A DNA stretch of 64,000 nt from a virus (lineage: Duplodnaviria > Caudoviricetes), in IMG/VR virus record IMGVR_UViG_3300048575_000392, positions 1 through 64,000 of that record; one strand, 5' to 3'. The position numbers and the translations under genes are program-made. The first letter of the stretch is position 1. Each line of letters begins with the position of its first letter. Under the pieces are notes generated by a model. The model saw only the letters and a list, made by a program, of their open reading frames with translations, was not told the origin of the DNA and made no database searches. Below, one piece after another: positions 1,999-47,835 of this stretch.

Positions 1999-2053
1999 AA
2001 AAAGAAAAGGGCCGCACGCCCCGAAGGGTATGCGGCCCGAGTCTTTCGGCACC
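1999..2053 (-). terminator. Conserved leader plus intrinsic terminator, copy 1 (before the lysis genes)
   Basis: GGTGCCGAAAGACTC-GGGCCGCATAC-CCTTCGGGG-CGTGCGGCCC-TTTTCTTTTT on the minus strand; identical to 26587-26635. Confidence 0.85.
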
Positions 2054-2066
2054 AAAGTATGAATCC

Positions 2067-2096
2067 ACTATAGGCACAAGGAAGAACGCGCGTCAA
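2067..2096 (-). promoter_or_regulatory. sigma70-like promoter upstream of leader/terminator copy 1
   Basis: TTGACG-18 nt-TATAGT; the RT stop codon lies inside the -35 box. Confidence 0.7.
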
Positions 2097-3094: not shown

Positions 3095-3133
3095 GATGCG
3101 AATCCTTTCGCGAGATTTACAAATTGTTTTTAC

Positions 3134-3164
3134 AAAAAAGCGGAGGCCCCCGCGGGGGCTCCGC
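3134..3164 (-). terminator. Intrinsic terminator between the TR-spacer and the RT gene
   Basis: GCGGAGCCCCC-GC-GGGGGCCTCCGC followed by TTTTTT on the minus strand. Confidence 0.7.
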
Positions 3165-18532: not shown

Positions 18533-19226
18533 TCAATACCTCCGCCCATACGGATTCGTTGAGCTCTTGAAGATTGGAATCGAGTATTGTCTGCTCGATC
18601 CAGTAATCGGCCTCGAACGAGACCTGTCCCCCGTAGAGAATCTGCCCAAAGTCGAGGTTGTAGTTCCCGCTTCGCTGCCCCCTGATCGTGTCGTCGAAGA
18701 CCGTGATGCCCTGCTTTTTGCTCAGCTCCACGCGCCTCGGCCCGCAGAAGAAGAGCTCGACGAGGTTGTAGAGCTCGTTCTTGAGCTGGATGTTCTCGCT
18801 CCAAATCTCGACCGTCACACGGTCCCGCCTCGGCCCGAAGCCTGTTACCCCGTAGAGCGCGGAATGGCTGGCGAAATAGGTCTTGAGCCAGGCCAGGGCC
18901 CCCGTGGAGATCTGGTACCCGGCGCCGACGATCTGATCCACATCGGCGGATACAAGGGTGCAGCTCTTCCACTCGTGGACCTCGGCGAGCTGGGGCACCT
19001 TCTCATCGCTTCCGGAGACGACCGTGATCGAGGGGAAGAGCTGCCCGTCGTAGATGGTCCCGTTCGACTTCTGGTTCAGAAGCTGAGCGAACGGATGCTC
19101 GTTGGAGACCCGGACGCTTCCGATCACGGGGTACAGCTCATCAAAGCGAACGTCGGCGAGATACTTCTTGAGCTCTTCGATGAGCACGTCCTCTATGAGG
19201 GCGCCCTTGTTCATGATGACTATCAT
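18525..19226 (-). CDS. Tail completion/terminator-like protein
   Basis: Position immediately before the sheath; FPSITVVSGSD. Confidence 0.55.
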   Translation of the reverse strand: MIVIMNKGALIEDVLIEELKKYLADVRFDELYPVIGSVRVSNEHPFAQLLNQKSNGTIYDGQLFPSITVVSGSDEKVPQLAEVHEWKSCTLVSADVDQIVGAGYQISTGALAWLKTYFASHSALYGVTGFGPRRDRVTVEIWSENIQLKNELYNLVELFFCGPRRVELSKKQGITVFDDTIRGQRSGNYNLDFGQILYGGQVSFEADYWIEQTILDSNLQELNESVWAEVLNG

Positions 19227-26580: not shown

Positions 26581-26635
26581 AAAACAAAAAGGGCCGCACG
26601 CCCCGAAGGGTATGCGGCCCGAGTCTTTCGGCACC
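26581..26635 (-). terminator. Conserved leader plus intrinsic terminator, copy 2 (before the head/tail operon)
   Basis: 49 bp identical to copy 1; U-tract TTTTTGTTTT. Confidence 0.85.
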
Positions 26636-26648: not shown

Positions 26649-26690
26649 AAATTACCGTATCAGAATGCTCCACGCAAGTGGGAAAGTCAA
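26649..26690 (-). promoter_or_regulatory. sigma70-like promoter(s) upstream of copy 2
   Basis: TTGACT-17-CATTCT and overlapping TTGCGT-17-TAATTT; AT-rich intergenic region. Confidence 0.55.
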
Positions 26691-26911
26691 GCCACCGTTT
26701 TCCTTCCTCGTAACAGGGCCATGTAGGCGGCCTCCGCAGCCACGTTCCCTCCCTGGGCCTTCCGCCTCAGGATCTCCACGTTCGCCTGGTTGTCGTCGAA
26801 GACCTCCCCCGTGGCGGCCTCGATCTCCTTCCCCTTCGCCTCGGCTTCGGCTCGGCGCCGTCCGATGCGCGCAAGGAGCCCGTATAGCTCCTCCCTCCTG
26901 TCCTGCTTCAT
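26687..26911 (-). CDS. Small helical hypothetical protein
   Basis: ATGA overlap with the upstream ORF; 74 aa. Confidence 0.55.
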   Translation of the reverse strand: MKQDRREELYGLLARIGRRRAEAEAKGKEIEAATGEVFDDNQANVEILRRKAQGGNVAAEAAYMALLRGRKTVA

Positions 26912-27210
26912 GCTTCCCTCCATTCGCCATGCTCGAGCCAGCCGTGCCAGGTGTGTTTCGCGGTCCACTCCGGCGGTGAATTCGGATAGCCACCACGGCC
27001 CCAGAAGATCGAGGGGCTAACCGTGATCGTGCCGTCTTCATGTTCGGTAACGCTCCACGTCGAGACATCGGCGGTCAAAAGGAAGCCGTCGTCGTCACGC
27101 GGCACTGGGGCGGCGACCTGCCAATGGCCGTCCTTGTCCTTCCAATAGTTTCCGGGTTCAACGGGCGAGCTGGTGATATTTCCCGGATTCTCTATGCGTC
27201 GCCCCTTCAT
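26908..27210 (-). CDS. Small protein, DUF6527-like
   Basis: WSVTEHEDGTITVSPSI...WHGWLEHGEW pattern; ATGA overlaps at both ends. Confidence 0.5.
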   Translation of the reverse strand: MKGRRIENPGNITSSPVEPGNYWKDKDGHWQVAAPVPRDDDGFLLTADVSTWSVTEHEDGTITVSPSIFWGRGGYPNSPPEWTAKHTWHGWLEHGEWREA

Positions 27211-30200
27211 GCGGCCTTCTCCTTGTCGATCCCCTGATTGTAACGGTCCTGCCGAACGGCCGCGATCGTCGCCGCGAGGCCCGTGTCGTCGAGTACGCCG
27301 GGGTCCTCCTCGAAGATGCTCCCGATGGCTTTCTTGCGCTGGATGCGCTCCCACTTCTTCTTCTCGTGTTCCGTGTCGGACACGATGTCGTGGTACTCGA
27401 TCTCCTTGTGAGCCTGACCCATGCGGTCGATGCGGCCTTCGCGCTGTTGCTTCACCCACGAGGTCTGAGGCAGGTCGAAGTTCATGAGGTAGGCCGCGTT
27501 CTGAAGGTTGAGGCCCGTCGCGCCGGCATCCGAGCACAGGATGATGTCGTAGATTCGGTCTTTCGGGTTCGGGGGGTTGAACCCTACCTTGACCTTCTCC
27601 TTCTCGGCTCCGTTCATGCTGCCCTGGATGATCCCGACCCGGCATCCCTTCGCTTCGAGGGCGGCCCGGAGATTCTCCACGGTCTGGATGTTGTGGGCAA
27701 AGATGACACCGGGCTTCCGGTCGCCCGCTTGGCTTGCCGTCTTCGGGTTGGCCTCCTCGTAGACCTTCTTCTCGATGATGTCGACCGCCCGGCTGATCTT
27801 AGCGTTCTTCTTCCAGTCGAACTGGTTCACGACGCGGTTGAGCGCCTCCTCCTTGATCGTCCCGGAGGACTCCTGGAGGCGTCGCGCGATCTCCTCATGC
27901 TTCGCCTCGGGCTGATTCCTGAACGAGCTCGGGGAGAGCGCCCTCATGGCCTCCACGTCGACGGTGCCCGAGCGCTGCGCCTTGCTCGCGCGCTGGAACA
28001 TCGTCTCGACGTTGGCGTACTCGGCCGCCTGCTCCCCGGTGAGGGGGACGATTTCCTTCTTGGAGACCTTCTTGACCCCAGTCACGGTGGGACTCGCATA
28101 GTTGTAGCGCGAGATGAGCCGCTGTAGGGACCGGCGAGCGAAGTCCGAATCGACCCCGTACCGCTTGATGAACTCGTTCCGGTCGTTGAATCGGTCCGGA
28201 GCTACCTTGTGGAGCATGTCGAAGGCCTCTGAAATGTCGTTCTTGACCGGCGTGGCGGTCTGGTTCATGAAGTACGTGACATTCTGGTTCAGAGCATCGA
28301 TGACGTTCGAGAGCGTCGTGTCCTCTTTCCCCTTCCGGTTCGTCGTGTAGTGGGCCTCGTCCACGGTGAGCATGTCGAAGGCAATGCCCTCCTTCTTCAA
28401 TGCCTCGCCAAGCAGGCGTTGACGCTCCTCGGGCGACTGGGCATTGAAGTGAGCCTTCATCGCCTCCGGGTCCTTGTCGTTGTGCTTGGCCATAAGGTGC
28501 ACCATATCGTCCCGGAGGGACTGGTGCGTGAAGACCACCATATCGAGCTTTCCGTCCTTCATGGCCTGGATGCGATCGTCTCGGGAGAGCGAGGGGTCCG
28601 ACTTCACACGGTACTTTCCCGGCTCGCAGAAGACGTTCACCTCATTGCCGAACTGCGAAAGAACGACCGAGGGAACCGCGAAGATCGCACGTTTCGCCTT
28701 TCCCTTCGACTTCAGCTCCGTGAAGGCGCCGATCGAGATGATCGTCTTCCCTTTTCCGGTCCCGAAGGTGAGGTTCATCCTCTTCGTCGCCTCGAACATC
28801 TTGATGGCGCGCTGGCGCTCGCCCTTCGCCTGCATCGTGGACACGGCGTATCGCTGCCCGCGGAGCTGATTCCTAGACAGGTCGGGGATCATGGATGCGA
28901 GCTGGGTCTCCGCGCGCCTCCCGATCGAGAGAATCTCGGTTCCGTCGTCCTGCTTGAGGTCATCCCCGCCGAACATGTCGCCCTGGGCGGCCTCGGCGCG
29001 CTTCTTCTCCTCGATGTACTCCCCGAGCTTGTCTTTCCACGAGCCCGAGGCGAAGCGGCCGTTGGCCCGGTTCGCTAGCTCGCCTCCGGCCTCGCCCATC
29101 TCGCGCTTGAAGCGATCGGTGTAGGAGTCCCGGACATCCTTGTGGAGCATCCCGAGCACGTGATCCTGGGCGTTCCTGATCTTCTCGACCTTCGTGGCGA
29201 GCTTCTTCCCCGTCACCCTGCCGTAGTTTTTGATGAAGCGCTCTGTGAAATCCCCGCGGATGCGGTCGATGATGGCGGCCTGGGCCCGGTCGGTGTCTCC
29301 GTGCATCCGGGCATACTCACCCCAGGGACTCTTCTCCTGGCGGCTCTCTCCCGCGTTGAATTCCTCCTCGGTATGCCCGGACATCCACTTTAGGTAGTGG
29401 TCCTTCATCTGGCTCTGGTAGAGCTCTTCCAGCTTCCCAGGGAGCTCTCCCTCGAGCTTCTTCACCTCGCGCTCGGCCGCGGCCGCGTCCGTGACCATGG
29501 ACGGGTCGCGCAGGTCGTCGATCGCGTCGAAGAGCTCACGGGCTCCGTCCACATTCGCCCGATACGTCGCCCAGTTGCCGGGTACGACTCGAGCCAGAGG
29601 GGGGATGTCCTTCTCGCCGAACATGTCTTCCGTCGAGTGGTTCTCGATGAGGTCCTGACGGATCGCCGCGAAGGCTGCCTCCTCGCTTCCCCCGTTCTCC
29701 CCCTTGAGGAACTTCGCCCAAGCCCCCTGCCGGGACGCCGCCTTGCCCGTCGCGAGGTTCTGCCCTGACGTGGCCTCGGCCATGCTCCCCTTGTAGATGT
29801 TCCGCTCCCAGTACCGTCGGAGGTCGGTCTGATCCTGCGGGGTAAGGTCTTCCAGGAGCTTGAAGGCAAAGGCCCCTTCGGGCATCTCGCCGAGAGTCCG
29901 GTGAACGGCCTCCTCGGTCTTGTGGATCGCCTCCGCGTCGTCCCCGAGGCTCTGGTTGTCCACGTCTCCTGCCGGGGTTTCGGTGTCGGGGCCGGGGTCG
30001 TCGAAGCTCTCGGCGTCGCGACGGACGAGGCCCGCCGGCAGCCAGTTCTCCTCGTCGCGCTCCCCGGCCTTGATGGCGTCGACTTCCTCCTCGATCTGGA
30101 GCTCCTCGGCGTCGACCGGGTGGATGAGCTTGTCGGGGGTCTTGATCGTCACCACCTTGCTTCCGCCGACCGAATCGATGGCATAGTCGTCTTTCGACAG

Positions 30201-32174
30201 CCCGAGGGCGTGCATCCTGACGATCGCGTCCTCGTTCGAGATATCCCCGAGGTTGACCTCCAGGCTTTCCGGGTCTTTCGAGCCCTTGAGCTCCACAACC
30301 ATAGCCGCGGAGGCTTCGAGGCTCCCAAGGGCCTGGCCGATGATGCGATTCGCCTCATCGAGGTAGGAAAGCCGTGACTCGTTGAGCTCGGCCGCGGCCG
30401 CGAGGTCGGCGGGGTTGGCCGCGATCTCTTCCTTGATCGATTCGGCTCGCGCGAGGAGGTCCTTTCCCCTCTCGATGGCCTCGGAGGCGATGGTCTCGTT
30501 GACGGCTTCGTGGTAGCGCGCCATGCCCTCCGCGAAGGTCTTGTAGTCCTCCGTGGACATCGATCGGCGAGCCATCATCGCTAGGAGCTTCGAACTCGCC
30601 CCGACCCCGAGAAGGTCGACAGCATCGCGGTCGAGGCCTTCCGTCTTCATGGCTGCCAGGGCGATAGAGTTGAAACCGGAGTAGTTGCCGTTGGCTATCC
30701 ACTTCTCGGCGCCGCCGGGGTTCTTCGCGATCGCGTCGAGAAGGGAGGAGTGAACGGTCGCCTGGCGCTCCGTCTTGATTCTCTCAGCCTCGCTCTCGAG
30801 GTCGGCGTCCAGGAGCTCGTGGAAGTCCAGCGTGACGCCCTTGCCGTAGGCGAGGTCCTCGACTGAATCGGCGGCTTCGTCGGCCGTCCCGTCGAGCTTG
30901 ATTTGGGTCCCGCCGTCCTTCTTCTTGTCGAGCTCGGCGAGCTTCTTCTTCATCTCCAGATAGTGCTTCAGGACCTCCGTCTTCTTGTCCACCTCGGCTA
31001 TTGGGGCGCGGGGCGTCTCCTCGCGCTCGTACATGTCGTTCTTGACGCCGTTGATCCGCCGGTTCGTCTCAATGCCGCGGGTGATCATGAAGGCCAGACT
31101 GGGGTTATCCTTTGCGATCTCGGCCATGCGCTCGGAGAACATCTCGTCCTTCTCCTGCTTCAAGGCCTCCTCGTCCAGACCGCCCTTCTTTTCGGCGCTC
31201 TCCCGGTATCCGGCCACGAAGCCCTTGCCGTGCCCGGAATTCTCCTTTTTGAGCACTTCCCCGGCGCCGGTGTCTCCGCCAAGGCCGGCCTCCACCTGCG
31301 CCCGCAGGTCCGCGTCGCCGATGAGCTCGCGCTGTATCTGCCTCACGGCATCCTTAGCTGAGGACATGAAGTTCGCCCTCTGGCTCTTGACGGCGCGCTC
31401 CTCGGCCTTCTTGTTGACTTCGAGCTCCTTCTCCAGCCGCTTCACGGCCACCTTGTCCCCGTCCTCCTCGGCCTGCGTCATCTCTTCGAGGAGGGCCTTC
31501 CGCGGCTGGGCGAAGTCTTCCTCGATCGGGGACGGGTCCCACCCCATGAGGTCGGCCATGTAGGAGGTGAAACCCTCTTCGGCCTCAGCTCGGGCCTTCT
31601 TTTCTTCCGCCACGGCCTGTTTTTGCAGATCCTTGGCTGCCTTCTTCTGGGACTTGTACTCCTTCCGCTCGTCGGCGCCCATGCGGGAGACTTCCTCTTG
31701 CTCTCGGAGCTTCTCCTCGAGCTGCTTCCGCTTCTTGTCTTCCTTCCGCTGCTCCATCGCCTGGGCGTACTCGTCCTTGCTCTTGATCTTGTTCAGCTTG
31801 AGCCCGTTGAGCTTGCCGCCGGCGCCGGCGATGACGTGGGCCGTCCCGCTGCCGGTATCCTGGATTAGGACCGGAGTCCCGTCTTCTGCCCCATTTGGAT
31901 GGACCGTGATCCACCGCGCACCCCGCGGAAGAGCCGCCTTCGCCTTCGGGGCGGCAGCCTGGCGCTCTCCTCCGGTTCCGGCGCCGATGGACTCGGCCTT
32001 CTGGAGGCGGATGTACTCCCGCGCCACGCGGAGCGACTTCTGCATGGTGAAATACTCGCGGATCGAGAGTTCGGTATACCCGTCGGGCTCTACGTCCAGG
32101 ACGCCGGACTTCCGAAGCTGTTCGAGCCCCTCGGGCCTGTATGCGTAGCTTTCGATTCTGTAGAACATGCTCAC
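27207..32174 (-). CDS. Giant (1655 aa) probable head-packaged protein with C-terminal SNF2/SF2 helicase-like domain
   Basis: FGTGKGKT, DEAH, TATPVKN, SDAGATGLNLQ, QREGRIDRMGQ; N-terminal WITVHPNG..PVLI..GAGGKLNG motif. Confidence 0.85.
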   Translation of the reverse strand: MSMFYRIESYAYRPEGLEQLRKSGVLDVEPDGYTELSIREYFTMQKSLRVAREYIRLQKAESIGAGTGGERQAAAPKAKAALPRGARWITVHPNGAEDGTPVLIQDTGSGTAHVIAGAGGKLNGLKLNKIKSKDEYAQAMEQRKEDKKRKQLEEKLREQEEVSRMGADERKEYKSQKKAAKDLQKQAVAEEKKARAEAEEGFTSYMADLMGWDPSPIEEDFAQPRKALLEEMTQAEEDGDKVAVKRLEKELEVNKKAEERAVKSQRANFMSSAKDAVRQIQRELIGDADLRAQVEAGLGGDTGAGEVLKKENSGHGKGFVAGYRESAEKKGGLDEEALKQEKDEMFSERMAEIAKDNPSLAFMITRGIETNRRINGVKNDMYEREETPRAPIAEVDKKTEVLKHYLEMKKKLAELDKKKDGGTQIKLDGTADEAADSVEDLAYGKGVTLDFHELLDADLESEAERIKTERQATVHSSLLDAIAKNPGGAEKWIANGNYSGFNSIALAAMKTEGLDRDAVDLLGVGASSKLLAMMARRSMSTEDYKTFAEGMARYHEAVNETIASEAIERGKDLLARAESIKEEIAANPADLAAAAELNESRLSYLDEANRIIGQALGSLEASAAMVVELKGSKDPESLEVNLGDISNEDAIVRMHALGLSKDDYAIDSVGGSKVVTIKTPDKLIHPVDAEELQIEEEVDAIKAGERDEENWLPAGLVRRDAESFDDPGPDTETPAGDVDNQSLGDDAEAIHKTEEAVHRTLGEMPEGAFAFKLLEDLTPQDQTDLRRYWERNIYKGSMAEATSGQNLATGKAASRQGAWAKFLKGENGGSEEAAFAAIRQDLIENHSTEDMFGEKDIPPLARVVPGNWATYRANVDGARELFDAIDDLRDPSMVTDAAAAEREVKKLEGELPGKLEELYQSQMKDHYLKWMSGHTEEEFNAGESRQEKSPWGEYARMHGDTDRAQAAIIDRIRGDFTERFIKNYGRVTGKKLATKVEKIRNAQDHVLGMLHKDVRDSYTDRFKREMGEAGGELANRANGRFASGSWKDKLGEYIEEKKRAEAAQGDMFGGDDLKQDDGTEILSIGRRAETQLASMIPDLSRNQLRGQRYAVSTMQAKGERQRAIKMFEATKRMNLTFGTGKGKTIISIGAFTELKSKGKAKRAIFAVPSVVLSQFGNEVNVFCEPGKYRVKSDPSLSRDDRIQAMKDGKLDMVVFTHQSLRDDMVHLMAKHNDKDPEAMKAHFNAQSPEERQRLLGEALKKEGIAFDMLTVDEAHYTTNRKGKEDTTLSNVIDALNQNVTYFMNQTATPVKNDISEAFDMLHKVAPDRFNDRNEFIKRYGVDSDFARRSLQRLISRYNYASPTVTGVKKVSKKEIVPLTGEQAAEYANVETMFQRASKAQRSGTVDVEAMRALSPSSFRNQPEAKHEEIARRLQESSGTIKEEALNRVVNQFDWKKNAKISRAVDIIEKKVYEEANPKTASQAGDRKPGVIFAHNIQTVENLRAALEAKGCRVGIIQGSMNGAEKEKVKVGFNPPNPKDRIYDIILCSDAGATGLNLQNAAYLMNFDLPQTSWVKQQREGRIDRMGQAHKEIEYHDIVSDTEHEKKKWERIQRKKAIGSIFEEDPGVLDDTGLAATIAAVRQDRYNQGIDKEKAA

Positions 32175-35100
32175 CTCACGATCAGCTTTTTGCCGTGATT
32201 CGCCTTCTTGAAGGCCTCTTCCTTGAACGCCTCGATGCTCGTCTCATCCATCCGGCCGAAGAATCCGGGCCGGTCATACTGTTTCAAGTAGGCCGCCTTG
32301 GCCTCCTCGGGGCCGTCGAAGCCGAACATGATCTTGTCCTCGTCGTAGTCCCCGGTCACCGGGTCGTTCTGATGGACCACGAAGACCTTCTCCGACTCGG
32401 TATCGGGGCCGATGTAGCAGTCGAGGTGGTCCTTATCCTTCCCGACGGTCCCTCGGATGTACCCGTAGTCGAAGTGCATCTTCGTTTCCCACTCGTGGCC
32501 GTCCTTGTCGACGCCGCGGCGGACGCTGCCCTTCCGGTTCTCGATGCTGATGTCCATGCCCTGGAGCGTCGTCCTGCCCTGGAGCTTATGCCCGCTCCAG
32601 GTCTCGGCCTTCTCTAGGCGGAGAGCCTTGAGGAGCTCGTCGTCCTCAACGAAGAAACGCTCGACGAGGGGGAGGACCTTCGCCTCGTAGACCTCCTGCT
32701 TGGGATGATTCCCGCGCTTGTTCCAGGTTTCCTGGTATTCGGCCTGGGCTTCGCGCTTCGTGGCGAAGAACTGCTCGAGCGCGCGGGCGAAGCACTCGCA
32801 GGTACGGTTCTGGTAATCCGAGGTCTGGGCCGTGGCCATGTTCGAGCGGAACGTCCGCGCGATCTGGCCGGGGAGCGAGGACCAATCGTCCGAGGCGTAA
32901 AAGTGGCGCCCTCCCCGCGTGCCGAGGTAGTTGTCCATGAAGTGCGCCCACTCGTGCGCGAGCGTGAACCCGAAGCCGGTTTCGCCGTTCTGCATGGTGA
33001 CGCCGATCGCATGATGGGCAGGAAAGTAGACGCCGGCCGCGTTCCGGGCGTGCATGAGCACCTTCCCGGAGTGGCTCACCTTGAGGCCGAAGCCTTTGGC
33101 CATGGAGGAGCGGTTCCCATAGATGCTGTATACCGCGTCCAGGGCGGTCTTGATGTCCTGGATCTCCTTCGTGTTGATCGCGTCGCCATTCTGGCGCTTC
33201 ACGAGCACGCCGTACTCGTCCAGGAGGTCCTTCCTCGTCCCCTTGTCGCCGTAGGCCGTCTCCTGCCCCTTGGCATAGGCGGAATAGTTCTCCTCGATCT
33301 GGATGTTCATGTCGGAGAGCTTCTGCTTCATGTCGACGACGGCCTCTCGGATAGGCTTCCACCTCGCCGAGCCCTGCACGTCGAGAAGGGCGGAGGCCAT
33401 GGAAAGCGTCGTCCTCATGGCCTTGTTCTCTCCGAGCATCCTCACGGAGGTCTTCTTGAGCCTCATGCCGGAATAGAGCTTCGCCTGCTTTTCGTCGTAC
33501 TCCTTCGCTCGGACCTTCGCCCGCTTCAGGTAGTAGTCCTGCATCGCAGCCAGGACATCGACCCCGACTCGGGCGTAAAGCACGCCCAAGGAAGCCTTCC
33601 CGTCGCCAAGGCGCACCATGTAGTCGCCGTCGCCGAGCTTCACGGCCTCGACGCGGTTCCCCGAGCTGTCGAAGTACCTGTCGTCGATTCGGGGTATCCA
33701 GCCAGGCGCGGGCTTCCCCAGAATATCCTTCTCGGAGGCGAGGCTGATCTTGACGGGGATCGCATCCCGGAAGTCGAGGTACTCCACCTTGTCGCCCTTC
33801 ACGCGCCGCGGCTCGAAGGTGTAGGGCTCCGGAGGCCGCTCCTCCAGCTTCGCGCCGAAGAGCTGGGCCTCGGTGGCGGCCCGCGTCTCGGGCGAGGCCT
33901 TGGCCATGAGGGCGGCCACTTTGTCGGGTTCCCTCTCAGGGATAATCTCCTTGATGTCCTCGGGCTTCACGGCGAGCATCTCCCTGTCCGCGAGGACGTG
34001 GGACACGCCGCCGGCGAAGTAGCTGATCTTCCCGATGGCCTTCTTACCGTTCTTCCCCTTGAACGACACCTTGGCGCCGTTCTTGAGCTGGGCGAGGAGC
34101 TTCTGGCGCCAGAGGGCCTCCTCGACCTCCGCCTCGGCGAACATGTCGAACTGCACCCCGAGGGGGGTGTCTTTCTTGGCCTCCGCGGGAAGGACCCACA
34201 CGGTCGTCTCGAAGCGCGTCCCGTCCCTCGTCACGAAGACCTTCTTCGGTACCAGCTTCGGGTTCCTGCGCGATTTCTCCAGCATGGGGATGATGAAAAG
34301 GGCCTTCCTGAGCGACTCCGACTCTTGCAAGTCGCTATTAGCGGCGGTATACTCTGAGGTGGAGGGTCTGGAAATGCCTAACATCGAATCCAAAGACATG
34401 GACTTCTTCGAGCGCGAGGACGTGCCCTTCGCCCGCGACAACGCCTCCCGGAAGTGCTTCCGCGTCTTCTCCGACAGCTCCTTGAAGGAATCCCCGATCA
34501 CCCTCGCCGACTTGATGGTGAACGGCCGCGCGATCTCGAAGGACGAGGCCCTGCGGTTGGCGAAAGCCTCCGGAGACTGACTCGCCGCCCACGCTTCCTG
34601 ATACAGCGCTATCTGTGCGCCCCCGACCAATCGAGTGATCTTGTCGTTCTTCGGCTCATCCTTCAGCTCCCGCCACACCTCATAGAACACGTGCCCTTCG
34701 CTCTTGGCCTCGGCCATCGCCTTCGTGGTGAGCTGGACCTCGGATATCATCCCATTCGGTAGCTTCACGTTCATGTTGATGTCACGGTACCCGACCGGCG
34801 AAGGCGTGGCGAAGTTGTTCTTCAGTCTCATCACCCGCGGGTCCGCCATGAAGAACTCCACGGCGGCCGCCATGGATTCCAGCCCGTCGAATATCAGGGT
34901 ATGGCCGTCGAAGTCGTAGACCTGGGAGGCGTCGGGGGCGCAGTCCTCGCGCATCTTCTCCTCAACGCGGCCGCGGTCCTTCAGCTTGTCCCGAGACTGC
35001 ACTTCGAGGGCCCCGAGCTTCTTCGCGGCCTCTTCGACGGAGGCCTTGAACCCCGCCCTGGCGTCCTCCGCGAGGCGGTAGAGCTCCTCGATATCCTTGG

Positions 35101-36016
35101 AGGGCTGCACGAGGTTCTTCTTGTCGATTCTCTTCTGGTAGTCCGGGTCGAGAAGATGCTCCACCTGTTCCGATGAATGCCGAGGGGAGGAGGCCTCTTC
35201 GCCCGCCGGCCGCCGCGGGGTGGCCTCCTCGTCTCCAGGGCGGACGTAGCGCATCTGCTTGACGATGGCCCCGTCCTTTCGATGCACGTCGACGGCCCGC
35301 CGGACCAAGCGGGAGAGGTCACGCGCTTTCGCGAGGATAGGAACCGCGAGGAGCGCCGACATCGCCTTCTTGAGTCCGAGCCTCTTCGCCGATTCGATGG
35401 CCGCCGGCTCGTCAACCAGGCCAGCCTCGATGAGCTTCTTGTAGTAGTCGGGATCTTCCTTGAGGTGGTCCTCGGCGATCTTGCGGGCCTCCGCGCGGCC
35501 TTCGTGGTGCTCCATCTCGACCTTGATACCCACAGCCAGCTCGGGGTTATGGGTTTCGGCTACACCGAGGAGCTCCTTTTCCGTCAAAAGGCCCGCCGAG
35601 GATACTGCCTTCCACACGGGGCTCGATTTCTGAATGACGAGCTTCTTCGCGACTTCCCTGCGCTCCGTCCTGGCCTGGGGCCGAACCTCGTCGAACTTGG
35701 AAATGATCGCGAGCTTCCCGTCCTTGAGCCCTACGCCGAGGACTACTCCGCGCTGCCAGTCGCCACCGGCCTCGAAGTAGGCGATGTCCTTCCCGTAGCG
35801 GATAAGCTCGCAGTTCTCGAGGTCGAGCCCCTGAGGGAATCCATCCAGGTCTTTCAGCTTGCTCTTGTTGCCGTAGATGTCGATCTTCCCATCTTCCCCC
35901 GCGAACAGCTTCATGAAGGCCGCGTAGAATCGGCTATCCAGTCCTCCCTCGGGGATCGATTTCGCTACGAGGCTCTCCTCGTTGTCGGTGTTCTTCCTGA
36001 TATACAATCCGGGCAT
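32171..36016 (-). CDS. Polyvalent protein: DUF5661-like + RelA/SpoT-like nucleotidyltransferase + KOW-like + zincin/LPD1-like + inorganic-pyrophosphatase-like domains
   Basis: EMEH..ARKIAEDHLKEDPDYYKKL; KDRGRVEEK/DFDG/GYRDIN/EVQLTT; AHEWAH and ECFARALEQ; ISIENRKGS..DYGYIRGT.GKDKDHLD..DEDK. Confidence 0.82.
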   Translation of the reverse strand: MPGLYIRKNTDNEESLVAKSIPEGGLDSRFYAAFMKLFAGEDGKIDIYGNKSKLKDLDGFPQGLDLENCELIRYGKDIAYFEAGGDWQRGVVLGVGLKDGKLAIISKFDEVRPQARTERREVAKKLVIQKSSPVWKAVSSAGLLTEKELLGVAETHNPELAVGIKVEMEHHEGRAEARKIAEDHLKEDPDYYKKLIEAGLVDEPAAIESAKRLGLKKAMSALLAVPILAKARDLSRLVRRAVDVHRKDGAIVKQMRYVRPGDEEATPRRPAGEEASSPRHSSEQVEHLLDPDYQKRIDKKNLVQPSKDIEELYRLAEDARAGFKASVEEAAKKLGALEVQSRDKLKDRGRVEEKMREDCAPDASQVYDFDGHTLIFDGLESMAAAVEFFMADPRVMRLKNNFATPSPVGYRDINMNVKLPNGMISEVQLTTKAMAEAKSEGHVFYEVWRELKDEPKNDKITRLVGGAQIALYQEAWAASQSPEAFANRRASSFEIARPFTIKSARVIGDSFKELSEKTRKHFREALSRAKGTSSRSKKSMSLDSMLGISRPSTSEYTAANSDLQESESLRKALFIIPMLEKSRRNPKLVPKKVFVTRDGTRFETTVWVLPAEAKKDTPLGVQFDMFAEAEVEEALWRQKLLAQLKNGAKVSFKGKNGKKAIGKISYFAGGVSHVLADREMLAVKPEDIKEIIPEREPDKVAALMAKASPETRAATEAQLFGAKLEERPPEPYTFEPRRVKGDKVEYLDFRDAIPVKISLASEKDILGKPAPGWIPRIDDRYFDSSGNRVEAVKLGDGDYMVRLGDGKASLGVLYARVGVDVLAAMQDYYLKRAKVRAKEYDEKQAKLYSGMRLKKTSVRMLGENKAMRTTLSMASALLDVQGSARWKPIREAVVDMKQKLSDMNIQIEENYSAYAKGQETAYGDKGTRKDLLDEYGVLVKRQNGDAINTKEIQDIKTALDAVYSIYGNRSSMAKGFGLKVSHSGKVLMHARNAAGVYFPAHHAIGVTMQNGETGFGFTLAHEWAHFMDNYLGTRGGRHFYASDDWSSLPGQIARTFRSNMATAQTSDYQNRTCECFARALEQFFATKREAQAEYQETWNKRGNHPKQEVYEAKVLPLVERFFVEDDELLKALRLEKAETWSGHKLQGRTTLQGMDISIENRKGSVRRGVDKDGHEWETKMHFDYGYIRGTVGKDKDHLDCYIGPDTESEKVFVVHQNDPVTGDYDEDKIMFGFDGPEEAKAAYLKQYDRPGFFGRMDETSIEAFKEEAFKKANHGKKLIVR
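34325..34353 (+). promoter_or_regulatory. Near-consensus sigma70 promoter antisense to the polyvalent gene
   Basis: TTGCAA (34325-30) - 17 nt - TATACT (34348-53); GGAGG at 34361-65, 8 nt before the ATG. Confidence 0.8.
34374..34580 (+). CDS. 68-aa gene nested antisense within the polyvalent gene; candidate immunity protein for the adjacent RelA/SpoT-like domain
   Basis: Promoter + RBS + ATG; normal acidic composition (MPNIESKDMDFFEREDVPFARD...KDEALRLAKASGD) while the host frame becomes Ser/Arg-rich over exactly this interval. Confidence 0.75.
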   Translation: MPNIESKDMDFFEREDVPFARDNASRKCFRVFSDSSLKESPITLADLMVNGRAISKDEALRLAKASGD

Positions 36017-36086
36017 ATTGGCCTCCGTGCACGTTCGGTAATAGGTTTTTTCTATGGCTCGGGCGCCCCAGCGGCGCCCGGCCTAT

Positions 36087-36470
36087 TCAGAATCCCGCGT
36101 TCTCGTCGAAAAGCGTATAGGAATGGTCGACCCCCTCAGGATCGGTCCAGGAATGGTCGCTGACGTAGGCCTCTTGGCGGCCGTGGTAGTAGACCCCGGC
36201 CAGTACCGACCTGAAGAGGTCGCCGTGCCAGGCCCGCTCCTTCATGAGCTCATCGCTGTAGGGGCCCATGAACCACGCCGACTTGTCGGGGTAGAACTGC
36301 CGTAGTGCATCCTTCACGGCCCACCAGTAGACCCCGAAGCTCTTGTAGATGCGGCGGTTCTTCTTCAGCATGTCCCCGATGCTGAGGGCGATCTGCTTCA
36401 GGTACTCGTCACCGCCCGGAACGCGGAGCTTGTTGACGAGGCCATCCACGAATTCATTGTCGTAGAACAT
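36087..36470 (-). CDS. P1 Ulx-like small protein
   Basis: KKNRRIYKSFGVYWWAVKDAL resembles my recollection of P1 Ulx (LKNPRLYRSYGPYWPEIKKLL); adjacent to the DarB-like gene. Confidence 0.55.
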   Translation of the reverse strand: MFYDNEFVDGLVNKLRVPGGDEYLKQIALSIGDMLKKNRRIYKSFGVYWWAVKDALRQFYPDKSAWFMGPYSDELMKERAWHGDLFRSVLAGVYYHGRQEAYVSDHSWTDPEGVDHSYTLFDENAGF

Positions 36471-36473
36471 GCT

Positions 36474-39400
36474 TCAGCCCTCCTTTCTCATTATACCCAG
36501 TCGCGGACCATTCCGGTAGATCATGCGCATCGACTTCTCGACCTGCGGGCGCTTCCTGAACGCATAGCCCGCCCTTCCGCCGTAGGCGCGGTTGTACTCG
36601 ACCTCGTAGTCCGGGTTCATCTCGATGATGTCGTGGAGCTCATAGGCCGAGGCCCCGCGGACCCCGCGGCGCTTCATACGCTCCACGATGTCTTCCACGG
36701 GCTTCCAATAGGTCGAGGCCATGGAGTCGATATACTCGGCCTCCTTGTGGGCCCGGTAGGCCTTCATGGCCGGCTCCTTGAGCGCCTCGGCGATGCCTGT
36801 CTGCTCGAAGACCGGATCGTTGATCGCGCCGCCATCCGCCTCAGCCTCGCCCGAGCGCACGGCCGCGACGATCCGCGCCCGGTCCTCAGCGACATAGGGG
36901 TTGAGCGCCTCCTTGATGTCTTTCTCGGAGAAGGACCATCCCTTCGAGGCGATCTCAACCTTCCCCTCGGCGTTGACCTTGCAGTACCGGGTCTCCCGGT
37001 CGGGCGAGAGCCGGAGCATATCCCGATAGCGGTCCCGCTTGAAGGCTTCCGCCTGGCCGGCGAAGTCCGCCGGGGCATAGAGAGACTTGAGGCCGGACAG
37101 GTCTTCCTTTGTCGGGCTCGCTACGTGCGTCCAGTGCTCCCCGCCGCCCTGCTTCCACTCGACCCAATCGGAAGTCCACCCGCTCCCCTCCTGGGAAGCG
37201 GGCTTCAGGAGCATCGTCTGCTTCTTGTGGTTGATGGTCATGGCGACGAAGGGGCCGCTCCTCATCATGAACACGTCGCCCGGCTTGTAGACCCGACGCT
37301 CCGCCTTGTCGTAGATGAAGTCGGGCGGGTTGTCCTTGAGGAGCTCGAGATTCTGAAATTCCGGGTTGCCTCTGAGGGCCTCTTCCATGTTGTAGAGCTT
37401 CCGGAGGCGGTTCTGGTACTGGACGGTGCCCTTGTCCCCCTCGAAGCCGCGGATCGAGCCCCGCATGAGGCTGAGGGCCGCGAGCGTCTCGTGGACCTTC
37501 TGGGCGTTCGCCTCCTTGATCTTGCCGGTCTTGATCTTCTCCATCTCCGCGCGCCGCTCGTTGGCCTTCTCCTTGTCGCCCCACTCTTCGGTGAGGGCGA
37601 GGAGGAGCTCGTCGGGATCTACGAAGGAGTCGTCGTTCGGGTTGGTGAAGACGTTGGACTTGGTGCGGAGAAGCTGGTCGATCCAGTTCGCCTTGTTCTG
37701 TACGAGGTTGACGGAGTAATTGTCGATCGTCCCCGCGGTGAGGTAGGTGTTGAGCGCCACGGATGCCTGCCTGTTCCCCTGGCGGTCGATACGGCCGTTC
37801 CTCTGGATGAAGTCCGACGGGCGGTAGGGGATGTCGAAGTGGTGAAGGGCAGCGCTGTTGTCCTGGAGGTTCACACCCTCGCCGAGGGTCGGCGTCGTCC
37901 CTATGATTACCTTGTACTTCCCCGCGTTGAAGCCATCGATCGCCGCCGACACCTCCTTCTCGAGCGCCGTGTCGCTCTTCTTCCCGCCGGCCTTCGTGAT
38001 GCCGTTCACCACGACGATCTCGGAGTCCTTGAATCCCTGTGCGACGAGGGCGGCCTTGATCTTGTCGTGCATGTTGAAAGAGCCGTCGCCTGAGAGGACG
38101 CGGTCGCAGAATACGACCTGCCCGCCTCCCGTCGCCTTGAAGCTCTCCATGGCGTTCTCAGCGAGCTTCGACAGCTTCGGGTTCTTCCACCCAGCGTACT
38201 TCGAGGGGTTGTAGAGCTCGAGGTCGAGCGAGGCCGTCCGCATCCGCGAGTAGAAGGTGAGGAAGCTCTGGCCGGGGTACTTCTCGGCCTTTTCGTCGTT
38301 CCCCAGGGCCTTGAATTCCTCGAGCTGGGCCGAGAGATCGCGAAGCACGCCCGTCTGGTCTTCCTGCATGGGGATGACGTTCGGGTTGTTGTTGGCCTTC
38401 GGCTTCGGGAGGCCGATCTTCGTGGGATCGTTCTGGAGGTCGGTGTACTTGAAGAACATGTCCTGGAGGGTCCGCAGGTTCTTGAATCCCTTGAGTACCT
38501 TCGCGTCTATGGTCTTGCCCGTGCCCCAGTCGCACTTCGGCTGCACCTCTATATCGGCGAAATTCCGGATGAAGTCGTCGATCGTCCTTATGTTCAGGCG
38601 GTCGAGCTCCTCCGGCGCGACGTGCATGAGCATGTTGTAGTATTCGAGCGGGCTGTTCGTGAGCGGCGTGGCGGTGAGAAGGAAGACGTTCTTGCCGTCA
38701 TGCCCCCGCCGGATGAACTCGCTCTTCTTGAACAGGCTCATGGCGCGGTCCGAGCGCCGACCGTCGTTCATCCCCGTATCGCGGGAGAGGCTCGAGCTGA
38801 AGAGGTTCTTGTAGTTGTGGGCCTCGTCCACGAACAGGGCATCGCAACCGAAGTCCTCGAAGTTGATGGTCTGGTTCGTCTTCCCGGCTTCGAGCTTCCC
38901 GCGAGCCGTCTCCTTGGCCTGCTCGATCTTTCGGGAGCTCTTCGCGGCCGCCTTGTCCATGATCTGGCCGGCTACGATGTCGTCGGTGATGCGCTGGTCC
39001 TCCTCGGGCCTAAGCTGTATCTCGGAGGCCGCGGACTCGGGAAGGACGATCACGTCGAAGTCCCCGTTCGCGAGCTCCTGGTACATCTTGTAGCGCTTCA
39101 CCTGGTTCGAGTATCCCTCCGTCTCGGGGTCCACGGCGCCCACCTTGAGGCCGGGCATGGCCTTGGCGATCTCCTTGATCCAGTCCTTCACCTTGTTGTT
39201 CGGGACCTGGACCATGGGCCGCTTGATCTTCCCCTCCTGCCGGAGGAGCCCGATCAGGCCGATCGCGGCAAGGGTCTTCCCGAAGCCCGTCCCGAGCGCC
39301 GTGATGCCCTTCCCGGCCCGGTAGAGGTGGTGGATGGACTGCCATTGATGCCCGCCCAGGACGATCTTGGGGCTCCATCCGTCGATTCTCACGGCGTAGG

Positions 39401-42254
39401 TCTTCGTCGGAGCCCCGATCTCCGCGTTGAACTTCCGGTTGTAGAGCTCTTCGAGCTGCTTCCGGACCTCGGGGTTGTTCGACACCCAGTTCTTGAAGTT
39501 GTCCTCGGCGTTCCGGTTGAAGGTCTCGGTGTCGATCCGGCTCGAGCGCTGCTTCTGCATGTTGAGGAAGTAGACGAGCTCGTGGTTGTAGTCCTGCCAG
39601 TCCCCGGCCGCGATGGTATGCCCCGCCTCGCGCCAGTTCTTTCCTCGGACGTACTTGTCCTCGTCGTAGACGACGCCCCACTTCCCCTCCTCATTCCTCG
39701 CGAGGTGGAACTCACCGAAGGCGTACCCGAAGTCCATGCCGTTGCCGTCGCGGGCCCACTGGTCGATGAGCTCCTCAGGAATCCACGAGGACTGGGGCGT
39801 GAACTCCGCTTCCTCGATCGGGACCCATCCGACAGCCTTCTCCAGCTCGTCCACGCCATGCTGCCACTTCTCCCGCGCGGCCGCGAACTTCTCGCCGGGG
39901 TGCTTATCTATCGCCTTGCGGAGGGCGTCAACCTTGTCCCAGGCGTTCCCCGCGATGAAGTCTTCCCGAAGCTGCCAGGCCCCCTCGGGCGTCAGAAAGG
40001 CATCGGCGCACTCCTGAAGGGAGGCCTTGAGCCCCTCGAAGTCATTCGGGAAGTAGGCGCGGAGCTGCTTCGGCGTGGCCTCGATCATGTTCCTCTGGAG
40101 GGTGAGGAGGGCCGTGACCGCCGGATTGTGCCCGTCGACGATCTCGATCTCCTTCGCATAGACGTTCTGCTTCGTGAGGAGGTCGTCGTCTATACCCACG
40201 AGGCCCTCGTAAACGCCCGCCAGAGCCGCATTGGCGTTGAGGACCTTCCGGATATCCTTGTCTTCCCGCGGCGCCACGCCATAGGCCTCCTCGTAGGCCT
40301 GGAGGAGGCGCCGGGCCTCTCTCTGGAGATCGTCGACGGGTTCGTCGGCCCTCATGGCGTCCCGGATGCCTTTGACGGCCTCGGCTATCGCCTTGACGCG
40401 CTCGAGCTTCTCGGCCGCCACCTCGTCGGCGCCCTTCACGCGCTCCCATCGATGGTTCGCGTTCAGGCGGTAGACCCGGCCGTCCTCGCTCTTCGTCGCC
40501 CCCACGGTCAGGGTCTTGGCCGCGACGGCCTCCGCCTCTCCCTCCGTGAGCGCGAGCTCGTCGCCTTTCTTCTTTGGCGCCGCCGCGCCGCCCTTCGTCA
40601 TGGAGCGCAGCCTGTCGAGGTCCTCCACCGTCATGTCCGCCTCGGGCTCGAAGCGGGACGCGGCCGCGTCCATGTCGGCGAGCGAGAGCTCCCCCTCTAC
40701 CACGTCCCGGCCCCAGTTTCCGGCGCCCTCCGCGAGTGCGCCAAGGATGTGCTCGGGCTTCACTTTGTAGTAGGAGCCCTCGACCCATGCCTCATTCCAG
40801 AACCCGGCGGCCTTGAGACCTTTCTCGTCGAGCTGGGCGAGGCGCTGGCGCGTCTCCTCGGGGTACTTCCGGAAAAAGATGATATCCGGCTGTACGCCGG
40901 TCTGCGTATGCTTGAAGGAGCCGTTCGGGAGCCTCGCGGCGCCCATGAACTGCCCCTTCTTGAGCATCTCGGCCCGCCAGTCCCGGTTCCCCTTGCCATC
41001 CATCACGCCGGGATGGACGATCAGCGCCATGGACCCGCCGTCGGCAAGTGCGTCCAGGGAGCGGGAGAGGAAGTAGCGGTCGAGACTCTTCTCCTCGGGC
41101 ATGTCCATGAAGGAGGTGAGGACCGACCGATCGCCGAACGGGGCATTCCCGACCACGCGCGAGAACTGGCGCTCGTTGTAGAGGTTGAACTGCTCGAAGC
41201 TCCCGGAATGGATCGCTGCGCCCTCCTGGAGGATCGAGGCGGCCGCGGCCGTCCTCTTGTCGAGCTCCACGCCGTGAAGATCCAGCCCTTCCGGGGCGAC
41301 CTCGAAGAAAACGCCTGTCCCGCACGAGGGTTCAAGGACCGACTCGCCGGCCGCGATCGGGGCTATCTTGTCGAGCATCTTCCACGTCATCTTCGCCACT
41401 GGAGGGGAGGTGAAGAAGTCGTAGAGGACTCCGCGCTCGTCGTCCGCCTTCACGCCGCCGAAGCCCGAGTACCTCCGGACCTTCTCGACATCCTCGGCCG
41501 AAAGCTCATCGCGCGGCTTAAGGAGGAGCTCGGCGACCTCCTGATTGAGCTTCGCCCTCGCCGCGGGGTTTAGGTGCTTTCCCTTATTTCCCCATGATCC
41601 GTAGTCCCTGAACGGGGTCTCCTTGATGGAGAGCGACAGGTCACGCCGCTTCGTGTCCTCCGGGGAGGCTTCCTTTTCAGCCTTCTTGCGCTCCACGAGG
41701 TCCCCGAGCTTCCGCGCGAGGGAGTCAACGCGGGCCTGCTTCTTATCCCCCGCGGCTTTCCGCTCCTTCAGCTTCGTCTCGCCAGCGGTCCCCGTGATGG
41801 CGTAGAAGGTCGCCCGTCCGTTGTTCCAGGCGAAGGCCTCGCCGGCGGCTACCTTGGCCTCCATGTAGCGCTTGGCCGCCGGCCCGCTTGTCTCGAAGCA
41901 CTTCGTCACATCGGCCGAACTGAGTACGAGGTCCCCGTGGTCCTTCTTCCACTCCTGGAACTTGCCGTCCAGCTTGGAGCTCGCCGCCTTGACTGCCGGC
42001 GTCGGAGTCTTGGGCTTCTCGATGCCGAGCTTCGGCTCCTCCGCCGCGGGGGCGCCGCCATCGAAGAGGTCGAACTGGGCCGCCCGAGGCTTCTCCGCCT
42101 TGGCCTCGCTGGGGAGGACCCATACGCGCTTTCGGTAGGTGGTCCCGTCCTTGTTCGTGAGCGTGATGTCTCTCTGTACGAGGCGGGCGCTTCTCCTCGC
42201 CTTCTCGAGCGCGTCCTGCGCCGGTATCAGGATGAATCGCTGAAAAATGTTCAT
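36474..42254 (-). CDS. DarB-like N6-methyltransferase + SNF2 helicase, probably head-packaged
   Basis: FFTSP, LEPSCGTG, GVELD, GNAPF; LGTGFGKT, VDEAHNYKN, LTATPLTN, GEGVNLQ, QRNGRIDRQGN; real start at 42254 (ATGA overlap with MuF). Confidence 0.88.
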   Translation of the reverse strand: MNIFQRFILIPAQDALEKARRSARLVQRDITLTNKDGTTYRKRVWVLPSEAKAEKPRAAQFDLFDGGAPAAEEPKLGIEKPKTPTPAVKAASSKLDGKFQEWKKDHGDLVLSSADVTKCFETSGPAAKRYMEAKVAAGEAFAWNNGRATFYAITGTAGETKLKERKAAGDKKQARVDSLARKLGDLVERKKAEKEASPEDTKRRDLSLSIKETPFRDYGSWGNKGKHLNPAARAKLNQEVAELLLKPRDELSAEDVEKVRRYSGFGGVKADDERGVLYDFFTSPPVAKMTWKMLDKIAPIAAGESVLEPSCGTGVFFEVAPEGLDLHGVELDKRTAAAASILQEGAAIHSGSFEQFNLYNERQFSRVVGNAPFGDRSVLTSFMDMPEEKSLDRYFLSRSLDALADGGSMALIVHPGVMDGKGNRDWRAEMLKKGQFMGAARLPNGSFKHTQTGVQPDIIFFRKYPEETRQRLAQLDEKGLKAAGFWNEAWVEGSYYKVKPEHILGALAEGAGNWGRDVVEGELSLADMDAAASRFEPEADMTVEDLDRLRSMTKGGAAAPKKKGDELALTEGEAEAVAAKTLTVGATKSEDGRVYRLNANHRWERVKGADEVAAEKLERVKAIAEAVKGIRDAMRADEPVDDLQREARRLLQAYEEAYGVAPREDKDIRKVLNANAALAGVYEGLVGIDDDLLTKQNVYAKEIEIVDGHNPAVTALLTLQRNMIEATPKQLRAYFPNDFEGLKASLQECADAFLTPEGAWQLREDFIAGNAWDKVDALRKAIDKHPGEKFAAAREKWQHGVDELEKAVGWVPIEEAEFTPQSSWIPEELIDQWARDGNGMDFGYAFGEFHLARNEEGKWGVVYDEDKYVRGKNWREAGHTIAAGDWQDYNHELVYFLNMQKQRSSRIDTETFNRNAEDNFKNWVSNNPEVRKQLEELYNRKFNAEIGAPTKTYAVRIDGWSPKIVLGGHQWQSIHHLYRAGKGITALGTGFGKTLAAIGLIGLLRQEGKIKRPMVQVPNNKVKDWIKEIAKAMPGLKVGAVDPETEGYSNQVKRYKMYQELANGDFDVIVLPESAASEIQLRPEEDQRITDDIVAGQIMDKAAAKSSRKIEQAKETARGKLEAGKTNQTINFEDFGCDALFVDEAHNYKNLFSSSLSRDTGMNDGRRSDRAMSLFKKSEFIRRGHDGKNVFLLTATPLTNSPLEYYNMLMHVAPEELDRLNIRTIDDFIRNFADIEVQPKCDWGTGKTIDAKVLKGFKNLRTLQDMFFKYTDLQNDPTKIGLPKPKANNNPNVIPMQEDQTGVLRDLSAQLEEFKALGNDEKAEKYPGQSFLTFYSRMRTASLDLELYNPSKYAGWKNPKLSKLAENAMESFKATGGGQVVFCDRVLSGDGSFNMHDKIKAALVAQGFKDSEIVVVNGITKAGGKKSDTALEKEVSAAIDGFNAGKYKVIIGTTPTLGEGVNLQDNSAALHHFDIPYRPSDFIQRNGRIDRQGNRQASVALNTYLTAGTIDNYSVNLVQNKANWIDQLLRTKSNVFTNPNDDSFVDPDELLLALTEEWGDKEKANERRAEMEKIKTGKIKEANAQKVHETLAALSLMRGSIRGFEGDKGTVQYQNRLRKLYNMEEALRGNPEFQNLELLKDNPPDFIYDKAERRVYKPGDVFMMRSGPFVAMTINHKKQTMLLKPASQEGSGWTSDWVEWKQGGGEHWTHVASPTKEDLSGLKSLYAPADFAGQAEAFKRDRYRDMLRLSPDRETRYCKVNAEGKVEIASKGWSFSEKDIKEALNPYVAEDRARIVAAVRSGEAEADGGAINDPVFEQTGIAEALKEPAMKAYRAHKEAEYIDSMASTYWKPVEDIVERMKRRGVRGASAYELHDIIEMNPDYEVEYNRAYGGRAGYAFRKRPQVEKSMRMIYRNGPRLGIMRKEG

Positions 42255-47815: not shown

Positions 47816-47835
47816 CCAGCCACCCCTCGCAAATG

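Follow-up and report, generated by a model that had tools for sequence, protein, structure and literature searches.

Genomic context of the cassettes

The window analyzed here (G+C ~0.61) covers the opening 64 kb of G000, an IMG/VR provirus record of 76 kb, and nearly all of its genes lie on the minus strand, which is the coding strand. Three similar cassettes, each composed of a promoter, a short leader, a GC hairpin and a U-tract, are situated ahead of three gene blocks. Cassette 3 is followed by a 58-aa zinc-ribbon-like ORF, TerS, TerL, the portal, a MuF-like protein and three giant polyvalent proteins, and cassette 2 by the protease/scaffold and then the major head protein. A complete DGR (Mtd-like target, bAvd and reverse transcriptase, RT) precedes cassette 1; behind it lie three ORFs without a family match, two of which contain membrane-spanning segments. 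The first-pass annotation had placed this architecture directly before the lysis, head/tail and packaging genes. It was recovered at all three places. The genes behind cassette 1 gave no match in Pfam or PHROG, and their "lysis" label is a guess from position and membrane-spanning segments only.

The window phage is temperate, as G000 encodes an integrase at its far end (Pfam) and IMG/VR classes the record as a provirus. Its early region encodes RecT, YqaJ, an exonuclease, SSB, RtcB and a KilAC antirepressor. Searches with TerL and the head protein retrieved related viral contigs together with prophages in MAGs labelled Rectinemataceae, Spirochaetes and Spirochaetales, which identifies the host as a spirochaete.

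Several further features of the surroundings were recorded. The giant proteins (1655, 1281 and 1969 aa) occupy positions 27207-42383 (minus strand), flanked by the MuF-like gene on one side and the head genes on the other. Their domains are of the SNF2/helicase, N6-methylase, RelA/SpoT-like and pyrophosphatase kinds, and from this content we take them to be polyvalent proteins. Paralogous small zinc-ribbon-like ORFs (CxxC ... HxC) lie at 47639-47815 and ~48161-48350 (minus strand), on both sides of a 91-aa gene, and the pair of 91-aa gene and zinc-ribbon ORF is also found upstream of TerS in two unrelated metagenomic contigs (L148 and L149). Beyond the window, the early region of G000 carries genes for an RtcB RNA ligase, a radical-SAM protein and a DUF5131 protein at 64390-67458, and a GIY-YIG-like (T5orf172/MUG113) ORF lies just past this stretch at 67594-68109. 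The stretch separating the DGR template repeat from the start codon of the RT contains a strong hairpin with a U6 tract at 3132-3164 (minus strand); this hairpin is kept in three related phages (the window phage, G002 at 18913-18942 and G009 at 67119-67146) and looks like an intrinsic terminator or a 3' structure of the DGR RNA. In the related phage G005, the corresponding stretch upstream of the RT gene (L063, 2640-2792) matched Rfam RT-14 with 53 bits, above the gathering score.

Architecture of the three cassettes

The features of the three cassettes and of the adjoining genes are listed below; all are on the minus strand.

1999-2096: cassette 1 overall, exact span, bounded by the -35 box and the last base of the U-tract
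2067-2096: cassette 1 promoter, sigma70-like TTGACG-18-TATAGT; the TGA of the RT gene (2093-2095) lies inside the -35 box
2037-2053: cassette 1 leader, GGUG plus hairpin 1 CCGA-AAGAC-UCGG (2049-2037); the 21-mer extends to 2033
1999-2038: cassette 1 terminator, stem-loop 2038-2009 and U-tract 2008-1999; G2038 and G2037 are common to hairpin 1
1972: ATG of the gene behind cassette 1, preceded by GGGGAGG
26662-26690: cassette 2 promoter, TTGACT-17-CATTCT; the TGA (26687-26689) of a 93-aa ORF (26687-26968) lies inside the -35 box
26619-26635: cassette 2 leader, GGUG plus hairpin 1 (26631-26619)
26581-26620: cassette 2 terminator, stem-loop 26620-26591 and U-tract 26590-26581
26572 or 26562: ATG of the protease/scaffold gene behind cassette 2
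47912-47941: cassette 3 promoter, TTGACC-18-TATAGT; its -35 box contains the TGA (47938-47940) of the 91-aa ORF
47877-47893: cassette 3 leader, GGUG plus hairpin 1 CUGA-AAGAC-UCGG (47889-47877); after the C-to-U change the position still pairs, as U-G
47831-47877: cassette 3 terminator, a different stem-loop (47877-47841) and U-tract 47840-47831
47815: ATG of the 58-aa zinc-ribbon-like ORF behind cassette 3
47938-48213: gene of the 91-aa small protein, adjoining cassette 3; remote DUF2292-like core and basic C-terminal tail RRRLVIVRR

The 21-mer GGTGCYGAAAGACTCGGGCCG marks the three copies (2053-2033, 26635-26615 and 47893-47873), which match the degenerate 21-mer with 0 mismatches; 0.01 copies were expected, and none of 100 shuffles reached three matches. 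No further copy was found in the rest of the 76-kb record. The order on the coding strand is the same throughout: the stop codon of the upstream ORF within a TTGAC box, the promoter, 13-26 nt, the 21-mer, the GC hairpin and 8-10 U residues, followed 15-26 nt past the U-tract by an RBS and a start codon. Since only an RBS lies between U-tract and start codon, leaving no room for a promoter, read-through is the sole route by which the downstream genes can be transcribed.

Cassettes 1 and 2 are identical across ~50 nt, and the hairpin of cassette 3 differs from theirs but is fully paired. Folding of the cassettes gave -32 to -33 kcal/mol (z -3.2 to -4.4 against shuffles), with terminator stems of -17 to -26 kcal/mol. 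On the coding strand of the 76-kb record, compact strong terminators were found only in the three cassettes and once inside the DGR. By eye, the three promoters have the hexamers alone in common. The promoters quoted in the first-pass annotation were thus all found in place, as was its third copy, which retains the leader (C to U, with a G-U pair kept) and carries a different, fully paired hairpin. The upstream TGA likewise lies inside a TTGAC box in every copy, a coincidence that is partly trivial because TTGAC itself contains TGA.

Cassettes in related phages

A covariance model, R1, was built from nine copies of the cassette. Its search of the relatives, a check proposed together with the original claim, returned 24 strong matches from ~12 related phages and prophages of spirochaetes. 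All of these matches have the coding orientation, they lie at conserved late-operon junctions, and a genome usually contains two or three of them. A cassette is located upstream of the protease/head protein in every cassette-bearing genome, directly behind the DGR RT in seven genomes, and ahead of the zinc-ribbon ORF and TerS in four. Extra cassettes were detected ahead of the DGR module in G005 and G014 and upstream of the tail genes in G018. G002 is without the terminase-side cassette, and its two flanking genes overlap there by ATGA; the absence of a cassette 3 equivalent indicates that the whole 125-bp unit is gained or lost as a module. In two host MAGs of ~4.6 Mb, R1 matches were confined to their ~3 prophage copies, and so the cassette is a phage element rather than a kind of terminator in general use by the host.

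The promoters are retained along with the RNA element. A promoter score of at least 9 out of 12 within 95 nt upstream was found for 76% of cassettes, compared with 5.9% of random windows from the same loci. In an alignment upstream of the protease gene, at positions homologous to the cassette 2 promoter, the promoter is kept in place and is often nearer to consensus than that of the window (TTGACA or TTGCAT, 17 nt, TATAAT). The distance from the -10 box to the GGYG motif that opens the leader varies between ~8 and 30 nt, with one case of 65 nt.

The more distant relative G006 is R1-negative, yet it carries two analogous promoter-leader-terminator cassettes before its head and tail genes (29384-29337 and 21228-21181, minus strand), which have a common leader, GCACCGAAAAGGGCAGC, with a GAAAA loop. 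Since R1 does not recognize this leader, the design extends beyond the one sequence family. The relatives also contain plain terminators with a promoter behind them. One such arrangement is located between polyvalent-protein genes of G002 (52245-52268), where a plain terminator after a stop codon is followed by an extended -10 promoter, and a similar terminator occupies the matching place in G009 (32140-32165). G008, a relative without cassettes, contains three units on its minus strand at ~52.3, 46.9 and 36.7 kb with common promoter text (ttcgattgtggTATAAT/TATAGT/TACAGT) and a terminator ~50 nt later; they are antisense to late genes and may encode small antisense RNAs.

A degenerate pattern scan of IMG/VR yielded only one new contig with real cassettes. 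An exact 17-mer gave 10 matches in IMG/VR, about the chance number, in coding-like contexts that had neither hairpin nor U-tract, and these were discarded. The phage GenBank collection contained no DNA match, and in JGI metagenomes the 21-mer produced one chance match (GC-rich and coding-like) and one CRISPR spacer. Rfam gave no match at the gathering score over the 64 kb and chance-level hits only in E-value mode on six cassette loci, and we found no description in the literature of such cassettes in spirochaete phages.

RNA structure of the conserved leader

The first-pass annotation had described a conserved 21-nt leader. A conserved transcribed element is indeed present; it is composed not of a linear box but of GGYG, a hairpin of 4-6 bp (hairpin 1) and the first bases of the terminator stem. 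GGYG forms the 5' flank of hairpin 1 in nearly all copies. The arms of the hairpin covary in the alignment upstream of the protease gene (CCGA/UCGG, CGAAU/AUUCG, CUUAUU/AAUAAG and CCGAUU/AAUUGG) around a loop of GGAG or GAAG, and the window phage has a form shorter by 3 nt with the loop AAGAC. The head cassette of G009 keeps hairpin 1 with an AAU loop, which indicates that the loop sequence is not universally required.

In the alignment of 24 sequences, 92% of cells pair, against 37-46% when the partners are slid, although these pairing counts are somewhat inflated because the alignment was fitted to the model. Double-sided changes occur in 12 of the 17 pairs, four of them among the six pairs of hairpin 1 alone, and the covariation score was reached by 0 of 500 shuffles. 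An independent MAFFT alignment of nine copies gave the same structural picture. The stems contain ~10 G-U cells and recurrent tandem G-A mismatches, features to be expected only of coding-strand RNA, and these argue against a DNA operator. Taken together, the compensatory changes support a cassette signal acting at the RNA level and, with no Rfam family matched, bear out the earlier reading of a signal of unrecognized type.

Hairpin 1 and the terminator are tightly coupled. The spacer between them is always 0 nt, and the final one or two G residues of hairpin 1 have a second possible partner in the 3' arm of the terminator, namely the C (or U) after CGGCC. A variable distance to the promoter combined with a fixed distance to the terminator suggests that the decision is taken at this terminator rather than through a DNA site of the lambda Q type. 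The minimum free energy fold of all 24 cassettes is without hairpin 1, the terminator stem taking up those G residues; the purine loop of most copies is then paired to the U-tract, in the manner of an ordinary A-tract. Forcing hairpin 1 to form costs 0.3-9 kcal/mol, shortens the base of the terminator stem and leaves an unpaired C before the U-tract. A separate idea, that GGYG pairs with the 3' strand of the terminator, was dropped, as only 4 bp could be formed by hand.

The type of hairpin 1 is specific to the genome. All three copies in G000 and G016 are of the short AAGAC form, even the one whose terminator differs. The longer GGAG/GAAG forms occur in G001 and G017, while two copies have UAGAA in G018 and two have GAAG in G002. 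Such variants fit a common phage-encoded reader, and the identity of copies within one genome could instead stem from gene conversion.

Proposed mechanism and alternative explanations

Considering the architecture and its covariation, we hypothesize that the cassettes are promoter-proximal attenuators that gate the late operons and are opened by a phage factor reading hairpin 1, an explanation that we judge, on balance, to be probable. Most likely, the cassettes keep the packaging genes, the head genes and the last gene block silent until such a factor allows read-through. Of the attenuated late-operon gate as originally proposed, the architecture, the RNA signal and the dependence on read-through were recovered, and we infer the antiterminator and its action.

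According to this model, a host RNA polymerase of the sigma70 type would start at the cassette promoter, as its consensus and conservation suggest. It would transcribe 5-30 nt and then GGYG with the small purine-loop hairpin, an RNA structure backed by covariation. As the strong intrinsic terminator starts at the very next base, unaided polymerase is predicted to release an RNA of ~60-75 nt, and the genes behind, which have only an RBS between U-tract and start codon, can be made via read-through alone. A phage-encoded factor most likely recognizes GGYG and hairpin 1 on the nascent RNA and thereby switches read-through on. Intrinsic terminator stems must reach close to the U-tract, and hairpin 1 holds the G at the base of the stem; a reader clamping the hairpin could thus leave the stem short, with an unpaired C before the U-tract, and weaken termination locally. 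Alternatively, the factor might be handed from hairpin 1 to the polymerase, as N is from boxB. The overlap of hairpin 1 and terminator, just 1-2 nt and far below that of the known RAT or ANTAR switches, speaks against the model.

The main rival to this explanation, which we regard as unlikely, is that the cassettes work without a factor, as attenuators or insulators whose leaky terminators set the ratio of a strong constitutive or early promoter to the genes behind it and block transcription from the upstream operon. Hairpin 1 would then be a structural accessory, for example a 5' stabilizer of the read-through mRNA or a helper in terminator folding. In line with this, Pfam scans of ~70 proteins of the record, which could miss very divergent Q proteins, detected no Q, sigma, ArpU-type regulator or other known antiterminator family; the minimum free energy folds lacking hairpin 1, the A-tract-like pairing of the purine loop with the U-tract and the plain terminators followed by promoters in relatives point in the same direction. 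However, in a temperate phage a constitutive leak from near-consensus promoters into head and probable lysis genes would be costly, and stems of -17 to -26 kcal/mol with 8-10 U are strong. Moreover, a mere spacer would need neither the covariation of hairpin 1 nor the retention of its 5' GGYG sequence, and the genome-specific hairpin variants also speak against this explanation.

It is also conceivable, with a probability that we place lower still, that the short terminated RNAs are themselves the product, the genome carrying two or three gene copies of a trans-acting phage sRNA of ~60-75 nt. GGYG and the hairpin would serve as a seed or a protein-binding part, the position ahead of late genes would be secondary, and such a function could coexist with a gate. 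A strong promoter, a short RNA and a terminator with a U-tail are the typical layout of an sRNA gene, and several near-identical copies are present per genome. StxS, from pR' of Stx phages, and IsrK of Gifsy-1 offer a precedent: these short RNAs from prematurely terminated prophage late transcripts can act as regulators (PMC7547250, PMC4825925), and the predicted cassette RNAs would resemble them in being pR'-type terminated RNAs. However, every copy stands directly ahead of an otherwise promoterless late gene at junctions kept across genomes, a position that an sRNA gene would not require.

Very improbable is a DNA-level site, in which the inverted repeat (CCGA..TCGG and its variants) would be bound, as an operator or roadblock, by a dimeric phage repressor, so that in lysogens polymerase coming from the cassette promoter is stopped during elongation, as at the stoperators of mycobacteriophage L5; the palindromic core, the several oriented copies in intergenic gaps between promoter and genes and the genome-specific variants, reminiscent of immunity specificity, would suit it, but the stem sequence changes freely with pairing kept where a protein half-site would keep sequence rather than complementarity, the G-U pairs and tandem G-A mismatches fit only coding-strand RNA, and the conserved GGYG lies on one side only.

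A candidate reader of hairpin 1

For the phage factor of the preferred attenuator model, the best lead is the 91-aa small protein encoded next to cassette 3, although it is a weak candidate for reading hairpin 1 and a lead rather than a finding. Its alleles follow the hairpin type. Type A, in G000 and G016, is 70% identical between the two, and type B, in G001 and G017, shares 28-36% identity with type A. The surroundings of the gene are 77-93% identical between G000 and G001; in the DNA, one block of ~245 bp cannot be aligned between them, and most of the 91-aa gene falls into it together with the promoter of cassette 3 and hairpin 1 up to the end of its 5' half. At distances of 21 and 46 kb, the head and post-RT cassettes nevertheless carry the hairpin variant that matches the 91-aa allele of their own genome.

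One copy of the family is present in each of the ten fully examined genomes, always ahead of the terminase genes. The basic tail (KKVLIVRR-like) was found in eight phages with R1-type cassettes and is absent in three relatives without them; since the carriers form one clade, this co-occurrence amounts to a single observation. Phyletic profiling likewise returned 93-aa, 127-aa and 1655-aa proteins as co-occurring with R1-type cassettes within that one clade and thus does not discriminate the partner protein.

The assignment of the 91-aa protein to a known family is remote. Pfam gave no match to the protein itself even at E 10, and DUF2292 (PF10055) was matched by four of its 68 HMMER relatives, with a best E-value of 1.3e-6; a protein atlas returned the same weak lead. 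Some family members are fused to helix-turn-helix domains. AlphaFold modeling predicted a core of helix, beta-hairpin and helix with a disordered tail at moderate confidence (mean pLDDT 67). A Foldseek search of the PDB with this model gave nothing below E 1, a profile search of PDB sequences returned nothing, and a word-based homolog search retrieved only the protein itself.

We consider it doubtful that the cassettes and the DUF2292-like, basic-tailed protein form a new portable antitermination system in which the protein clamps GGYG and hairpin 1 against the base of the terminator. If so, one phage-specific protein would open all cassette-gated late operons together, and the specificities of protein and hairpin would co-evolve, like those of N and boxB. 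The proposed mechanism would also provide a concrete, testable candidate function for a small phage protein family that is always located ahead of the terminase genes.

Comparison with known regulatory systems

Control of late genes by antitermination is textbook knowledge for lambdoid coliphages; to our knowledge, it is essentially undescribed for spirochaete phages. The closest parallel in logic is the lambdoid pR'-6S RNA-tR' unit with Q (lambda, 82, 21 and the Stx phages), where transcripts from a constitutive sigma70 promoter meet an intrinsic terminator within ~60-200 nt, directly ahead of the late genes. A short terminated RNA is made there in lysogens and the late genes need read-through, as we infer for the cassettes. 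Loading of Q, however, requires a DNA site within the promoter or close to it as well as a sigma-dependent pause, whereas the conserved, putative signal of the cassettes is a transcribed, covarying hairpin fixed to the terminator, their promoters being alike, by eye, in the hexamers only. In addition, no Q homolog was detected by Pfam, and there are two or three gates per genome instead of one.

The lambda N/nut system also relies on a small purine-loop hairpin in the nascent RNA, a resemblance of form only. The loops of lambda boxB are GAAAA/GAAGA, those of the cassettes GGAG, GAAG and AAGAC, and those of the G006 cassettes GAAAA. Phage-specific specificity, and a small basic protein as a conceivable reader, would be further points in common. 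Unlike nut, the cassettes have no boxA (CGCUCUUA-like) upstream of the hairpin and carry the GGYG flank instead. In place of an N-like protein, the only candidate is the 91-aa protein with its basic tail. Nut sites lie near early promoters, not against a terminator, and N is processive over many terminators, whereas each cassette is one gate per operon with a hairpin that has bases in common with the terminator.

The put elements of HK022 are likewise cis-acting RNA just past the promoter that lets polymerase pass terminators. They are ~65-70 nt long, form two stem-loops and act constitutively without a phage protein, whereas the cassettes have one hairpin of 13-17 nt; constitutive action of the put kind would render the adjacent terminator pointless, and in this the cassettes differ from put. 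In the BglG/SacY-RAT and ANTAR (EutV, NasR) systems, a protein-stabilized hairpin competes with the 5' side of an adjacent terminator in a local decision, and the cassettes may operate in a similar manner. The overlap in those systems is several nucleotides, with two hexaloop hairpins in the case of ANTAR, compared with 1-2 nt and one hairpin here; no CAT or ANTAR domain was found by Pfam, and the genes controlled are sugar and nitrogen operons there and phage late genes here.

What is new, then, is the RNA motif and its reiterated modular layout, the logic being known from lambdoid pR'/tR'. The late-gate logic is here compact, reiterated, specified by RNA and packed into a unit of ~125 bp that the junction of two genes can acquire or lose. 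If the proposed mechanism is true, the cassettes would provide a new RNA motif by which phage annotation could recognize where late operons start in this group, a minimal system in which to study how termination is decided by a small hairpin lying against a terminator, and a portable genetic switch.

Traces of the cassettes in public sequence data

The public sequencing runs found to contain the phage, four of which were compared with the window, consist solely of contigs that are probably from DNA; no RNA run with the phage was found. The contigs break within the cassette, at positions corresponding to 26587 and 26616 of the window, and one of them runs from cassette 2 straight into sequence from behind cassette 1. 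Both are explained by the 50-nt repeat, which disrupts short-read assembly of these phages.

The CRISPR spacer retrieved from JGI metagenomes belongs to an array of 37 repeats on metagenome contig Ga0272446_1032901 (L164), whose repeat, GTCGCGCCCCGCGCGGGCGCGTGGATTGAAAC, we take to be type I-C-like. None of the other spacers of this array matched the ten phage genomes. Spacer 23 is identical over 31 nt to cassette 1 (2054-2024) and over 30 nt to cassette 2 (26635-26606), and it matches the leader of cassette 3 over 21 nt with one mismatch, which indicates that some host has targeted this conserved multi-copy element.
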